From positions 1-59,175 of the IMG/VR virus record IMGVR_UViG_3300045988_086641: 59,175 bases of DNA; one strand, written 5' to 3'. The stretch is from a virus. The notes beneath the pieces are model-generated. The model had not been told where the DNA came from and searched no databases. It saw only the letters and a program-made list of their open reading frames with translations. The position numbers and the translations under genes are program-made. Positions 9,516 through 13,634 of the stretch are shown here, one piece after another (positions within the stretch are counted from its first letter, which is position 1; each line of letters begins with the position of its first letter).

Positions 9516-10286
9516 ATGGAAAATGAAGTAAAACAAATGGTAAAAGAAGAAGGAGGTGCGAATATGGAAAAGGCTATGGTAGTATTTAGCGGCGGAATTG
9601 ATAGTACTACTTGTTTAGCAATGGCTATAGAAAAACATGGTAAAGATAATGTAGTAGCAATTAGTTTTACTTATGGTCAAAAACATAGCATTGAATTGGA
9701 ATGTGCTAAAAAGATTACTGAATATTATGGAGTTAAACATATTATTAGAGATTTATCAGAAGTATATAAAGGTAATAAAACTTGTAAATTATTAAAAGGT
9801 AATGAAGAAGTTGAACATACTAGATATGAAGAACAAACAGAAGCAAATGGTCATCATGCTGTAGATACTTATGTACCTTTTAGAAATGGTTTAATGTTAT
9901 CTTATGCAGCAGCACTTGCTATTGAAGAAAATGTAAGCGTTATCTATTATGGCTCTCATGCCGATGATGCGGAAGGAAATGCTTATCCAGATTGCAGTAT
10001 TGCTTTTAATGAAGCAATGGGTAAAGCCATTTATGAAGGAACTGGTGGCGAAGTAAGAGTTGAAGGGCTAATTATTAACCTACATAAGAATGAGGTTATT
10101 GCTAAAGGATTAGAATTAGAAGCACCATATAATTTAACTTGGTCTTGCTATGAAGGAAAAGATAAACCATGTGGAACTTGTCCTTCTTGTAGAAAAAGAA
10201 TAGAATCATTCCTTGCAAATGGAGTTTTAGACCCAGTGGATTATGAGGATGATACTTATAACAGATTGGAGGATAAAAATGAGTAA
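9516..10286 (+). CDS. queC: 7-cyano-7-deazaguanine synthase QueC
   Basis: PP-loop 'VVFSGGIDST' and C-terminal zinc motif 'CGTCPSCRKR'. RBS AAAGGAGG; an alternative start ATG 9564 also has a strong RBS. Confidence 0.8.
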   Translation: MENEVKQMVKEEGGANMEKAMVVFSGGIDSTTCLAMAIEKHGKDNVVAISFTYGQKHSIELECAKKITEYYGVKHIIRDLSEVYKGNKTCKLLKGNEEVEHTRYEEQTEANGHHAVDTYVPFRNGLMLSYAAALAIEENVSVIYYGSHADDAEGNAYPDCSIAFNEAMGKAIYEGTGGEVRVEGLIINLHKNEVIAKGLELEAPYNLTWSCYEGKDKPCGTCPSCRKRIESFLANGVLDPVDYEDDTYNRLEDKNE

Positions 10287-11181
10287 ATTAGATTATTTCT
10301 TTGTTGGATGGAACTCCGATTTATTATTTGATATATTGATGGAGAACAACTGTAATATGTTGCTCTCTCAATATAACAATAGGTCAATGATTAAAAAAGT
10401 TATTGATTATAAGAAAGAGCACCCAGAATATACGGGTAAATTATTTATTGATTCTGGAGCATATACAGTAAGTACTAAAGGTGATGAAGTTGATATTGAT
10501 AGTTATATTTCTTATATAAATGATATTGGAGAATATGTAGATATCATAGCTCCTCTTGATGTTATTCCAAAGTTCAAAGGGGATAAAACAGAAGAAGCAA
10601 GCGAAAGAAATTATAACTATATGATGGAGCATCTAAAGTATCCAGAAAAACTTATACCAGTCTTCCATGAAGGTGAAAGCTGGGAATATCTTAAAAAGAT
10701 TTTATCATATGGAAAAGATTACATTGCTGTAGGTGCTTTGGTTGGGGCATCTAGAAATCAAATAGAATACTTTTTAGAAAAGGTATTTCTTATTATAGAA
10801 GAATTCGAAAAGAAAACAGGAAGAAAGATAAAGGTTCATACTTTTGGAATGACCAACCAAAAACTATTAAAGAGTTTTCCTATAACAAGTGCAGATAGTA
10901 CAAGCCATATTATGTGCGCAAGTAGAGGAAGTATAATGACCGATTATGGTATTATCCCAGTCAGCGATGTTCAATCTAATTTAAAGAATCATGTATTTAA
11001 TAAATCCGATTCAGCAATTCAAAATCTTCAGAAGTATTTAGATAAACTAGGTATAAACCTAGACCAAATAACAGGAGAAAGAGGTTATATTTATAGAACT
11101 ATTATAAATGTGTACTATATTTTAGACTTCTGCAATAATTATAAGTACGAAGATAAGATAAAAAGGAAACCATTATTCTAG
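10279..11181 (+). CDS. dpdA: DpdA-like DNA guanine transglycosylase (tRNA-guanine transglycosylase homologue)
   Basis: TGT-family catalytic motif 'LFIDSGAYTV' (DSGG[FY]Q-like); sits in the preQ0 cluster; RBS GGAGG. Confidence 0.55.
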   Translation: MSKLDYFFVGWNSDLLFDILMENNCNMLLSQYNNRSMIKKVIDYKKEHPEYTGKLFIDSGAYTVSTKGDEVDIDSYISYINDIGEYVDIIAPLDVIPKFKGDKTEEASERNYNYMMEHLKYPEKLIPVFHEGESWEYLKKILSYGKDYIAVGALVGASRNQIEYFLEKVFLIIEEFEKKTGRKIKVHTFGMTNQKLLKSFPITSADSTSHIMCASRGSIMTDYGIIPVSDVQSNLKNHVFNKSDSAIQNLQKYLDKLGINLDQITGERGYIYRTIINVYYILDFCNNYKYEDKIKRKPLF

Positions 11182-11191
11182 GAGGCGTATT

Positions 11192-11602
11192 GTGTCAGAG
11201 AAGAAATATGTTAAATGGTGGGAAGTAAAAGAATACTTAAATAATTTAGTAGAAAGATTAGAAAGTACTGAAAACTTTCGTTTAGAGGATTGTCCTGGTA
11301 TATTTACATTTCCAAGAGGTGGTTTAATACTAGCAACATTGTTATCATATTTAATACATAAACCAATATTAACAAATCCAGCACCTGGTTGCATTATTAT
11401 TGATGATATTGTAGATACAGGAATAACCATGAAAAAGTATTCAGATTTAAGACATGATAAAAATTATTTTATTACCTCTATGTTTGTTCAAACAAAACAA
11501 CTATATAAGGTGTCAGATTATAATTGTGATGTTGATTATTTTGAATATGAGAAAAAAGATGAATGGATTGTTTATCCTTGGGAGGATATGAGTCAATGGT
11601 AG
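11192..11602 (+). CDS. Type I phosphoribosyltransferase-fold protein, unassigned, embedded in the deazaguanine cluster
   Basis: PRPP-binding motif 'CIIIDDIVDTGITM'; GTG start with RBS GGAGG. Confidence 0.5.
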   Translation: MSEKKYVKWWEVKEYLNNLVERLESTENFRLEDCPGIFTFPRGGLILATLLSYLIHKPILTNPAPGCIIIDDIVDTGITMKKYSDLRHDKNYFITSMFVQTKQLYKVSDYNCDVDYFEYEKKDEWIVYPWEDMSQW

Positions 11603-11799
11603 AAGTATTAGGAATTATTGCAACATTATTTATAGTAATAGCGTTTGCAATGAATAGTAAAAAGTTAATAAGAATATTTGATACAATAGGAGCCATCCTA
11701 TTTATCATTTATGGAATATTGATTAGCAGTTTAAGTGTATGGTTATTAAATGGTATTTTAGTAATAATTAACATATATAAGTTAATCAAAGAAAAGTAG
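11596..11799 (+). CDS. Small two-TM membrane protein
   Basis: Two hydrophobic helices 'VLGIIATLFIVIAFA' and 'IGAILFIIYGILISSLSVWLL'. The start overlaps the preceding stop (ATGG TAG). Confidence 0.4.
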   Translation: MVEVLGIIATLFIVIAFAMNSKKLIRIFDTIGAILFIIYGILISSLSVWLLNGILVIINIYKLIKEK

Positions 11800-11815
11800 T
11801 TCGTATAATAATTTT
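11795..11815 (+). promoter_or_regulatory. Phage promoter consensus TCGTATAAT, copy 4
   Basis: 'agtagttcgtataataatttt' before RBS GAAGGAGG of queD. Confidence 0.5.
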
Positions 11816-11830
11816 GAAGGAGGAAAGTAT

Positions 11831-12295
11831 ATGAGAGTTACAAAACATATTGAGTTTGAAACAGCACATTTATTACCAGGTTATGATGGTGGGTGTGGAA
11901 ACTTGCACGGTCATAGCTATAAGTTAGAGGTTACAGTACAAGGACCTCAAACGGATGGATGGGGAATGGTAATCGATTTCAAAAAATTGAAAAAATGTAT
12001 GGAAGAGATAGTACCAGACCATCGCTATATTTATAATGCTAAAGAACCATCAGAAATCGAAAAAGATTTAGTTGAGGTATTAAAGAAACACGATATTAAA
12101 TATCAAGGTATGCCTTTTGATACCACTGCAGAAAATATGGTAAGATACTTCGCAGAGATGATTGAACAATCTTTACAAAATAATTATGGTTACCCAGGAG
12201 TTAAGGTGGTAGAAGCAAAACTTTGGGAAACAAGTAATAGTTATGCAACTTATATAGCACCAGAGCAATTATCTTTATTTGAGGAGGAGAAATAA
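11831..12295 (+). CDS. queD: 6-carboxy-5,6,7,8-tetrahydropterin synthase QueD
   Basis: 'ETAHLLPGYDGGCGNLHGHSY' (QueD Cys-x-x-x-His-Gly-His zinc/catalytic motif). Confidence 0.8.
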   Translation: MRVTKHIEFETAHLLPGYDGGCGNLHGHSYKLEVTVQGPQTDGWGMVIDFKKLKKCMEEIVPDHRYIYNAKEPSEIEKDLVEVLKKHDIKYQGMPFDTTAENMVRYFAEMIEQSLQNNYGYPGVKVVEAKLWETSNSYATYIAPEQLSLFEEEK

Positions 12296-13017
12296 TGATA
12301 CCAGTTGCGGAAATATTTGGTCCAACTATTCAAGGGGAAGGACCTAACACTGGAATCAAAGCCTTATTTGTTAGGGTAGTTGGATGCGATTTCAAATGTA
12401 GTTGGTGCGATAGTAAATTCGCTTGGAAAGTAAATAAGGATACAAAGTATTACAAAGAAGAAGAACTAGGAAACATATTAGTAGAAAAATGTAATAAAAG
12501 TAATACTAGTAATGTAATACTAACTGGAGGAAATCCTTGTTTATATGATTTCGAAGAAGTTATTGATATCTTACATAAGAATAAGATAAAGGTAGATATT
12601 GAAACACAAGGAAGCATTTTTCCAGGATGGATGAGTAAATTAGATACTGTGGTTATTAGTCCTAAAGCACCATCTAGTGGAATGGAGGATGTTTATTATA
12701 GAATTAGCACTTGGTTAGATAGACCTGATGTTAATAATCATATAGTAATTAAAATACCAGTATTTAATGATGATGATTTTGAATTCGCCAAGAAGTATTA
12801 TGAGTTATGTGAGTATTATAGAAATGATTATAATATGAACATAGATTTATACATAAATGTAGGAAATGATGATACTTCAGCACAAGGGGATATTTCAAAA
12901 AGAATTCTGGATAATTATAGAAAACTAATTGATAAGGTTATGGCTTCAGAAATGAAAAGAGTTTATGTTATGCCTCAAGTACATACTTTAGTATGGGGAA
13001 ATAAGCAAGGAGTGTGA
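12295..13017 (+). CDS. queE: 7-carboxy-7-deazaguanine synthase QueE (radical SAM)
   Basis: 'FVRVVGCDFKCSWCDS' CxxxCxxC cluster near the N-terminus. Confidence 0.75.
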   Translation: MIPVAEIFGPTIQGEGPNTGIKALFVRVVGCDFKCSWCDSKFAWKVNKDTKYYKEEELGNILVEKCNKSNTSNVILTGGNPCLYDFEEVIDILHKNKIKVDIETQGSIFPGWMSKLDTVVISPKAPSSGMEDVYYRISTWLDRPDVNNHIVIKIPVFNDDDFEFAKKYYELCEYYRNDYNMNIDLYINVGNDDTSAQGDISKRILDNYRKLIDKVMASEMKRVYVMPQVHTLVWGNKQGV

Positions 13018-13022
13018 TTATA

Positions 13023-13634
13023 ATGAGTAAGTATAATTATGAAGCAGTAAAAGAGGCTACCAAGCAATTACTAATTGCTATGGGGCAAGACCCAGAAAGA
13101 CCTGGACTAAAAGAAACACCAAGAAGAGTAGCTGGATATTGGAAAGAGTTATTAGAGGGAGAAGAATATACTAACGCCGAAATAGCAGAAAAGTATAGTA
13201 AAGAATTCGAAGTAGGATATGACCCTATGGTAACTGTTTATCAAAAAGATTTATATAGTCATTGCGAACATCATTTAGCACTTATGTTTGATGGTTCTGT
13301 TGTAATGGGTTATATACCAGTTAAAAATGATGATGGTACTTATAAAGTATTAGGATTAAGTAAATTGTATAGAATTGCCGAAATGTGCGCAAAAAGATTA
13401 CAATTACAAGAAAAATTAGCAGCTGATATTGCTGAATGTATTTCTTTAGCTACTGGTTCTAAAGAGGTATATGTAAATCTAGATATGAAACATGGTTGCG
13501 TAAGTGCTAGAGGGGTTAAAGCATCAGGAAGTACTAATGTAACTTTTATGACAGAAGAGTTAAGAAAAGATGCAGAGGCAAGAGCCGAATTTGAAAGAAA
13601 AGCTGCTGAAATAGTAGCTAGACATTCTAAATAG
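13023..13634 (+). CDS. folE: GTP cyclohydrolase I FolE
   Basis: 'ETPRRVAGYW' and 'YSHCEHHLALMFDG' signatures. RBS AAGGAG 11 nt before ATG 13023. Confidence 0.8.
   Translation: MSKYNYEAVKEATKQLLIAMGQDPERPGLKETPRRVAGYWKELLEGEEYTNAEIAEKYSKEFEVGYDPMVTVYQKDLYSHCEHHLALMFDGSVVMGYIPVKNDDGTYKVLGLSKLYRIAEMCAKRLQLQEKLAADIAECISLATGSKEVYVNLDMKHGCVSARGVKASGSTNVTFMTEELRKDAEARAEFERKAAEIVARHSK

Follow-up and report, generated by a model that had tools for sequence, protein, structure and literature searches.

Hundreds of phages carry genes for the synthesis of 7-cyano-7-deazaguanine (preQ0) together with a DpdA transglycosylase, and DNA modification by preQ0 and DpdA is a system of an already known, anti-restriction kind. 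The closest cultured relatives of the cluster described here are those of the Streptococcus phages Dp-1 and MS1, which belong to the DpdA1 family (PMC6884629). In both phages, FolE, QueD, QueE, QueC and a DpdA of ~300 amino acids (aa) head a replication module with DnaN, a Cas4-like exonuclease, a resolvase, UvsX and a clamp loader, and a membrane protein is embedded beside DpdA. The DNA of Dp-1 carries 2'-deoxy-7-aminomethyl-7-deazaguanine (dPreQ1) (PMC6884629; PMC10484667). Here, we analysed the viral record IMGVR_UViG_3300045988_086641 of IMG/VR over its full 59,175 nucleotides (hereafter the window), which holds seven plus-strand genes packed at 9516−13634. In order, they encode QueC, a predicted DpdA1-type transglycosylase, a phosphoribosyltransferase (PRTase), a membrane protein, QueD, QueE and FolE. 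Homology, fold and conserved catalytic residues support a complete pathway from GTP to preQ0 together with a phage DpdA. The PRTase and the membrane protein are recurrent accessories of viral 7-deazaguanine clusters, and as a set they are apparently undescribed in the searchable literature.

The window cluster resembles those of Dp-1 and MS1 in its pathway genes, in its place at the head of a replication module and in the embedded membrane protein. Unlike the window, Dp-1 additionally encodes QueF and the QueT transporter, and MS1 encodes a Vut_1/YhhQ protein (COG1738) with six transmembrane helices; the window instead carries a 67-aa YgjV-type unit and the PRTase, and its gene order differs. 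No PRTase-like sequence was detected in the stretches of Dp-1 and MS1 examined (L011, L012). The seven open reading frames (ORFs) listed in the initial annotation were recovered by an independent gene caller on an identical contig of 59,174 bp in ENA, with protein lengths of 256, 300, 136, 67, 154, 240 and 203 aa. Gaps between the genes do not exceed 31 nucleotides, or the genes overlap. Five pathway genes within 4.1 kb are not a chance arrangement.

Curated family models recognise all four preQ0 enzymes, in agreement with the first assignment. QueC, QueE and FolE exceed their NCBIfam cutoffs and QueD exceeds its Pfam cutoff. More specifically, QueC reaches 174.3 bits against TIGR00364 (cutoff 150.3) and 189 bits against Pfam QueC, and is 45% identical to QueC of Dp-1; Gat-QueC of Pseudomonas phage NP1 matches it through its QueC half only. 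QueE scores 235.6 bits with TIGR03365 (cutoff 206.1), and FolE 163 bits with its Pfam model and 162.5 with NF006826 (cutoff 162). QueD is matched by Pfam PTPS (102.5 bits) and phrog_2389 (1e-28), while its score with TIGR03367 (83.2) lies 6 bits below the cutoff of 89.25. As the window holds a single QueD-like locus by tblastn, a DpdL paralogue is absent.

Together, FolE, QueD, QueE and QueC would convert GTP into the free base preQ0, and the DpdA1-type enzyme would then exchange selected guanines of the phage DNA for preQ0 through the covalent aspartate mechanism of tRNA-guanine transglycosylase (TGT) enzymes. The resulting DNA, containing 2'-deoxy-7-cyano-7-deazaguanine (dPreQ0), would resist restriction, and on the strength of the homology we regard this outcome as very probable. 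The identity of the final base depends on tailoring genes. A tblastn search of the whole window found no QueF, QueC with a GATase domain, DpdN, ribonucleotide reductase (RNR), deoxynucleoside monophosphate (dNMP) kinase or dUTPase. The tailoring queries comprised QueF from three sources (unimodular and bimodular), NP1 Gat-QueC and immuto DpdN, and returned nothing except QueC itself, with DpdM and ArcS not queried directly. Because neither QueF nor Gat-QueC is present in the window, dPreQ0 inserted after replication is the default product, perhaps with traces of dADG (2'-deoxy-7-amido-7-deazaguanine), as the initial annotation had also expected. By analogy with other DpdA1 phages, dPreQ0 should be present at a partial, sequence-dependent level (PMC10516641; PMC10484667).

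The TGT-like protein contains the motif KLFIDSGAYTV and matches phrog_887 (5e-42). Its homology to the cultured phage enzymes spans 99% of the protein, with 37% identity to the MS1 transglycosylase and 34% to Dp-1 gp7 (E 1e-30). Pfam TGT gave no match, the NCBIfam DpdA model scored only 23 bits, and a PDB search by sequence returned noise only. Four residues, D58 (FIDSGAY), D94 (APLDVIP), H130 (VFHEGE) and D206 (SADSTS), are invariant across 34 homologues, and these include the catalytic aspartates on which the initial annotation had let its DpdA call depend. In the Salmonella DpdA, the roles of Asp95, Asp130, His181 and Asp256 in general acid/base catalysis, base recognition and nucleophilic attack have been defined experimentally (PMC10164549); the window residues were assigned to these roles by motif and order, without explicit superposition. 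The AlphaFold2 model shows a TIM barrel of the TGT type (predicted local distance difference test, pLDDT, 92.9). In a fold search of the PDB, the top ten matches were all tRNA-guanine transglycosylases (E ~1e-7, tenth 2e-5; TMq 0.56−0.63), led by the Z. mobilis TGT, the archaeosine TGT and human QTRT1. Owing to the phrog_887 match, the identity to the MS1 and Dp-1 proteins, the invariant residues and the fold matches, we accept the protein as a predicted DpdA1-type DNA-guanine transglycosylase.

The PRTase, a protein containing 'IIIDDIVDTGIT', has its nearest relatives among XGPRT and HGXPRT, in sequence and fold alike. Its scores remain below the thresholds of the general models: 24.3 bits with Pfam PF00156 (gathering 26.3), 37.4 bits (1.8e-9) with NCBIfam XPRT (cutoff 138) and 24.9 bits with HGPRTase (cutoff 150). 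The AlphaFold2 model reaches a pLDDT of 94.1, and Foldseek places Yersinia and E. coli XGPRT and archaeal HGXPRT at the top (TM 0.62−0.72). Sequence and model thus agree with the type I PRTase fold first proposed, with an acidic motif that would bind phosphoribosyl pyrophosphate (PRPP) and a pyrophosphate (PPi) loop. The best match overall is Gpt of E. coli and Yersinia (PDB 1NUL, 1A95-98, 4JLS, 5XTK), with which the protein shares the N-terminal helix, the RGG PPi loop, a VIDDLVDTGGT-type PRPP motif with an Asp before TG, and a W-I-x-x-P-W-D/E hood. The two differ in that identity is only 22−27%, that a Gln stands in for Gpt Lys115, where relatives have His or Lys, and that the strand-loop-strand segment of Gpt is nearly gone. 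More specifically, phmmer aligns residues 1−52 with Gpt 1−47 and residues 64−131 with Gpt 81−140, so that the 33 residues that carry the mobile-loop hairpin (Gpt 48−80) have shrunk to 11, a loss of ~22 residues. This deletion is common to viral, fused and cyanobacterial members; the copy of Cellulophaga phage phiST keeps an insert of Gpt-like length.

Three motifs of the PRTase are invariant: PRGG in the PPi loop, IIDDIxDxGxT for PRPP and, at the C-terminus, the base-stacking WxxxPWE. RGG, DD, DxGxT and the stacking Trp are kept in viral, fused and cellular members down to ~25−30% identity. Equally invariant is an Asp or Glu at the presumed N7-contact position, which we take to be the residue that contacts the purine N7 in XGPRT and HGPRT structures. 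7-Deazapurines have no N7.

To place the PRTase in its viral context, we surveyed 80 IMG/VR loci with relatives of the protein and counted Que genes on the same strand within 6 kb. At least one of FolE, QueD, QueE and QueC lies near the PRTase in 71 of the 80 loci, and at least two in 63. FolE is the commonest immediate neighbour (21 loci). Three types of TGT/DpdA-like gene, detected with a DpdA1 hidden Markov model, with DpdA3 of Flavobacterium phage immuto or as a divergent TGT-like protein of 400 aa with the motif DSGGFQ, together account for 60 loci; many of the remaining 20 stand on shortened contigs or have one short flank. The idea that the PRTase marks phages that lack DpdA and modify at the nucleotide level was therefore rejected as a general rule. 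Viral lineages unrelated to one another, sampled from gut, rumen and marine environments, share the linkage to Que genes. At least 149 close to moderate homologues were found in a large protein collection, many on contigs of ~58−59 kb, and searching 1.84 billion representative proteins with a profile gave 1,406 PRTase clusters at E <= 1e-10, cellular ones included, mostly of 110−160 aa. Homologues of ~40% identity, on contigs of 64 kb and 260−298 kb, all lie between QueD and QueE, with FolE, QueC, in some cases QueF, and DpdA nearby.

These 64-kb and 260−298-kb phages read TGA as a sense codon, with in-frame TGA where DpdA homologues have Trp (L001 12578−13798, L009 13024−14232, L005 8383−9135 and 14131−15198); read with the standard code, one ORF of L005 is interrupted by many in-frame stops. 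A 142-aa ORF of L001 was considered as a deoxyribosyltransferase-like protein and dropped, as it found no Pfam support.

In marine, myovirus-like loci (L054 10714−12913 and its relatives among L044−L066), the order is QueD-QueE-(QueC)-FolE-PRTase, followed by the 400-aa TGT-like protein with DSGGFQ. In L054, a glycosyltransferase-like gene lies between, which hints at a further derivatised base in phages of this type. In 18 marine PRTase loci of the same series, an HD-domain homologue lies directly 3' of the TGT-like gene. The window also encodes an HD-domain phosphohydrolase (23790−24410; phrog_28876, 1.6e-38; Pfam HD under its cutoff), for which nothing usable was matched in the PDB by sequence. 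From this gene content, the HD-domain protein may be a further accessory of PRTase-bearing clusters.

Gene fusions likewise tie the PRTase to the pathway. A PRTase-FolE fusion occurs in 35 deposited phage genomes (Pseudomonas phage NP1, Vibrio phage VpKK5 and 33 other records) as well as in L092 and L098, and the PRTase domain is the unannotated N-terminus of what is listed in those phages as GTP cyclohydrolase. Further relatives are present in Cellulophaga phage phiST and in immuto. Apart from phiST, these cultured carriers share with the window a loop-less PRTase domain (PRGG, DDxxDSGxT, WxVFPWE) inside a DpdA/preQ0 cluster; unlike in the window, the domain is fused to FolE or stands between QueE and FolE beside DpdA3. 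These proteins are too divergent from the window PRTase to be picked up directly: tblastn of that PRTase against deposited phage genomes returned nothing useful, and the cultured carriers surfaced only with more distant metagenomic queries. Among cultured carriers, immuto DNA has been reported to contain 2'-deoxy-7-(formylamino)methyl-7-deazaguanine (fdPreQ1), and phiST DNA 2'-deoxy-7-deazaguanine (dDG) at 100%. In phiST (L102 8986−10030), the PRTase stands beside RNase H, a dNMP-kinase-like protein and RNR, ~20 genes from DpdA3.

Other architectures were seen in further proteins (P0206, P0199, P0200, P0331, P0211, P0218, P0219). One of them, the metagenomic protein P0206, is a QueC-PRTase fusion; three are tandem PRTase-PRTase proteins with a degenerate second copy (P0199, P0200, P0331); another architecture joins the PRTase to a Cys-rich helical domain of ~200 aa without a Pfam match. 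In P0258, the PRTase is fused to a HAD-like hydrolase. Small HAD-like genes (DxDxT) also lie inside several Que clusters (L001 12122−12538, L005 10744−11136, L009 12532−12894, L025 9601−9960, L029 and L030), and no such gene was found in the window. The word 'phosphoribosyl' does not occur in Hutinet 2019, Cui 2023 or Olsen 2023, and a search of the searchable literature, which was not exhaustive, gave no description of a phage-cluster PRTase or of the membrane protein.

The initial annotation had suggested that the two genes outside the canonical route, an assessment our analysis supports, might specify a different final base or provide a salvage or transport step. A role in setting the base was rejected, as the PRTase co-occurs with gene sets that predict at least four end products, among them clusters with QueF (L005, L030, L085), with Gat-QueC (NP1) and without a detected QueC (L054). 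Since the PRTase turns up regardless of the final base that a cluster's genes predict, base-specific tailoring is unlikely, and a salvage or transport step is the better supported of the two suggestions.

We tentatively favour, at a little under even chances, a recycling role for the PRTase, a reading drawn from its fold, its conserved motifs and its gene context. As a minimal 6-oxopurine phosphoribosyltransferase, it would convert the guanine expelled at each DpdA turnover, as well as free guanine from elsewhere, together with PRPP into GMP. Host kinases would raise GMP to GTP, the substrate of FolE, so that the expelled guanine would supply the ring of the next preQ0 and the cycle would close. 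By removing free guanine, the enzyme would also relieve the competition that preQ0 meets at the DpdA-DNA intermediate. DpdA readily re-inserts guanine in vitro, where [14C]guanine exchange is the standard assay (PMC10164549); free guanine is thus a real competitor, and its removal should favour the net insertion of preQ0. Guanine recycling is the most economical reading, because incoming GTP and outgoing guanine are the only small molecules common to all PRTase-bearing clusters. The initial annotation had set an ordinary purine salvage enzyme without effect on modification against a role in the pathway. This is a false choice: the enzyme probably carries out 6-oxopurine salvage of the ordinary kind, but position and fusion tie its gene to the pathway.

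Several observations weigh against guanine recycling. About 9 of the 80 viral loci have no Que gene nearby. The mobile loop or hairpin with which characterised 6-oxopurine PRTases close their active site is missing from this PRTase, which also scores under the Pfam and NCBIfam cutoffs; its turnover could therefore be poor or atypical. Two kinase reactions separate GMP from the FolE substrate, and the FolE fusion thus links enzymes that do not act one directly after the other. The domain is fused also to QueC and to the HAD-like hydrolase, and the phiST copy stands beside a dNMP-kinase-like gene and RNR; these fusions and this context are compatible with a role in forming 7-deazapurine nucleotides, which they fit equally well or better. 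Furthermore, an experimentally shown 7-deazapurine PRTase, TubE, lies within a FolE/QueD/QueE cluster (PMC6112128).

The last points lead to the main competing explanation, namely that the PRTase is a 7-deazaguanine phosphoribosyltransferase like TubE (tubercidin) and ToyH (toyocamycin) of Streptomyces. It would join preQ0, or 7-carboxy-7-deazaguanine (CDG) or 7-amido-7-deazaguanine (ADG), to PRPP, and the 7-deazaguanosine nucleotide would either enter DNA or RNA by a nucleotide-level route parallel to DpdA or act as a host antimetabolite. TubE is in vitro a CDG-specific PRPP transferase encoded beside FolE, QueD and QueE homologues, and ToyH is the presumed preQ0 equivalent (PMC6112128; 10.64898/2026.04.15.718813). 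Like the window, these Streptomyces clusters thus place a PRTase-fold enzyme among FolE/QueD/QueE(/QueC) homologues; unlike it, they belong to secondary metabolism, contain GMP-reductase-like, decarboxylase and Nudix/HAD tailoring enzymes, and have no transglycosylase. The QueC-PRTase fusion and the neighbours of the phiST gene speak for such an enzyme, as do the HAD fusion and the small HAD-like genes of six Que clusters. The HAD-like genes recall the phosphatase step in toyocamycin biosynthesis. An ADG nucleoside has moreover been reported in cells infected with CP220 (quoted in PMC10516641).

On the other hand, a DpdA is encoded here and in most loci, TGT-family enzymes use the free base, and phosphoribosylation would drain preQ0. 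The window has no RNR, dNMP kinase, HAD, Nudix or GMP-reductase-like gene that could process such a nucleotide. The acidic N7-contact residue is kept, and viral and cyanobacterial copies share their motifs at 51% identity, with no sign of a changed substrate. Clusters predicted for CDG-, preQ0-, preQ1- and G+-type bases would demand repeated changes of specificity, and TubE and ToyH, compared by length and gene context, are longer (~194 against 136 aa). We consider a TubE/ToyH-like activity of the window PRTase a minority possibility, to which roughly one chance in a handful might be given. It is about as improbable, or slightly more so, that viral PRTases of this family in general form a nucleotide branch that makes a modified (d)NTP for the polymerase or a toyocamycin-like antimetabolite, beside DpdA or in its place.

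The loss of the mobile catalytic loop and the scores below the family cutoffs are also what a non-catalytic ligand sensor or scaffold might show, one that would bind PRPP, a 7-deazaguanine or guanine nucleotides and modulate FolE or DpdA. The PRTase fold is used for regulation in PyrR and PurR. A sensor would agree with the FolE fusion in many phages, the tandem proteins with a degenerate second domain and the presence of a ppGpp-binding PRTase-fold protein (5vog) among the fold matches. However, all residue groups for PRPP binding and catalysis are invariant, and the loop-less form is kept beside a salvage enzyme in many Prochlorococcus and Synechococcus genomes, which argues for an active enzyme. 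A sensor or scaffold is accordingly an outside chance in our judgement.

The cellular homologues serve as a control for the linkage. A scan of species-representative genomes gave 80 cellular loci, mostly of Prochlorococcus and Synechococcus and with complete chromosomes among them. Several Que genes were nearby in only two of these, and no picocyanobacterial copy lies in a Que cluster. Instead, a nucleoside 2-deoxyribosyltransferase (PF05014, 100 bits) directly follows the PRTase in 50 of the 80 loci, with overlapping stop and start, as exemplified by L161 7959−8812 of Prochlorococcus marinus MIT 9201 and seen alike in 49 other genome loci. From its gene arrangement, this pair looks like a conserved two-gene purine-salvage unit. 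The cellular copies have the loop-less architecture and the motifs of the viral ones, with 51% identity between the Que-linked viral copy of L052 and a Prochlorococcus copy. The motifs do not change between the Que-linked and the deoxyribosyltransferase-linked setting. The partner enzymes, DpdA in the one and the deoxyribosyltransferase in the other, both cleave an N-glycosidic bond and act on a free purine base.

Cellular homologues that function outside a Que context are equally what would be seen if the PRTase were generic auxiliary purine salvage for replication, its place in the cluster meaningless and the membrane protein an unrelated small moron. The nine viral loci without a nearby Que gene fit this explanation, as does the phiST copy among nucleotide-metabolism genes, ~20 genes from DpdA3. 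We nevertheless hold it to be quite improbable, given the linkage to preQ0 genes in 71 of 80 loci from unrelated gut, rumen and marine lineages, the fusions with FolE and with QueC, and the independent recurrence of the membrane protein in other Que clusters. No other gene for purine salvage or nucleotide synthesis was found in the window.

The start of the membrane protein gene (11596) was set by an alignment of 17 homologues, whose hydrophobic segments share invariant E, T, R, Y, S and N residues. The 67-aa protein matches Pfam PF10688 (Imp-YgjV) with 35.2 bits (gathering 23.5) over positions 83−154 of the 159-position profile, that is, its C-terminal half, and gives a weak MtN3/SWEET match. 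Hydropathy shows one block of 17 and one of 36 residues, a pattern compatible with three helices without proving them. The two transmembrane helices first described thus give way to a probable single Imp-YgjV unit of three. Homologues are present in at least four other phage Que-cluster lineages: in two they directly follow Vut_1/YhhQ (L017−L021), in L031 one follows FolE, and weaker ones occur in marine clusters. A different hydrophobic protein of 56 aa follows QueE in a 64-kb phage cluster (L009 9085−9255); small membrane proteins may have been recruited to Que clusters more than once.

By position and family, the protein would be one triple-helix unit of the YgjV/PnuC/SWEET kind that oligomerises into a carrier for purine or 7-deazapurine bases, filling the slot held by QueT in Dp-1 or YhhQ in MS1. 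Oligomerisation would be needed, as 67 aa amount to half of the YgjV model. The embedded position in a preQ0 cluster is the same as that of YhhQ and QueT, but sequence similarity is absent: the protein has no match to Pfam Vut_1 or QueT, and none by tblastn with the transporters of MS1, L017 and Dp-1. A function of YgjV is not reported in the searchable literature. Two points tell against a carrier. The closest cellular homologue (78% identity) stands in an uninformative bacterial chromosomal context, and in the two lineages where a homologue occurs in addition to YhhQ, not in its place, another importer would seem superfluous. We regard a small oligomeric base carrier as possible, though doubtful. 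For the explanation as a whole, in which the block is a post-replicative DNA-modification module in the replication operon of a Dp-1-like phage and the PRTase and membrane protein act as proposed, we see the chances as evenly balanced.

The block is flanked on one side by a family A DNA polymerase and on the other by a DnaN-like clamp, a Cas4-like exonuclease, resolvases, a UvsX-like recombinase and clamp loaders. A blastn search of the block against deposited phage genomes gave no useful match. The window (~30% G+C) is very likely a complete phage genome: the same genome, with a PRTase identical to that of the window, was assembled at 59,174 bp with a different start point, which indicates a complete, permuted or circular assembly. 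All gene-like ORFs of at least 100 aa in 1−59175 lie on the plus strand, and the cumulative GC skew climbs throughout. No terminator-like site was found on the plus strand in 7000−15000, and scans for promoters and terminators gave nothing exceeding shuffled controls. The gene at 1971−2579, which has a DnaD-like loader gene on one side and a DnaC-like one on the other, encodes a 202-aa protein that matches phrog_351 (3e-17), a family of phage RNA polymerase sigma factors. The coordinates of the block are collected in the table.

Table. Genes of the 7-deazaguanine block, with positions in the window.
Feature	Position	Strand	Remarks
QueC, preQ0 synthase	9516..10286	+	256 aa, without GATase domain
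DpdA1-type DNA-guanine transglycosylase (predicted)	10279..11181	+	300 aa
XGPRT-like phosphoribosyltransferase, loop-less	11192..11602	+	136 aa, GTG start
Single-unit Imp-YgjV-family membrane protein (probable)	11596..11799	+	67 aa
QueD, 6-carboxytetrahydropterin synthase	11831..12295	+	154 aa
QueE, radical-SAM 7-carboxy-7-deazaguanine synthase	12295..13017	+	240 aa
FolE, GTP cyclohydrolase I	13014..13634	+	206 aa from GTG 13014; 203 aa from ATG 13023 (203 aa in the independent gene call)

The new element of these findings is a PRTase that, in viruses of gut, rumen and marine origin and in several cultured phages, is linked or fused to 7-deazaguanine genes. If the PRTase recycles guanine, the base exchange in phage DNA would be a closed, self-feeding cycle, which could help explain the very high replacement seen in some phages. 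If it forms 7-deazaguanine nucleotides instead, the accepted view that all viral 7-deazaguanine modification is post-replicative would be incomplete. The 67-aa YgjV-type protein, in turn, gives an initial clue to what its family of membrane proteins may do.

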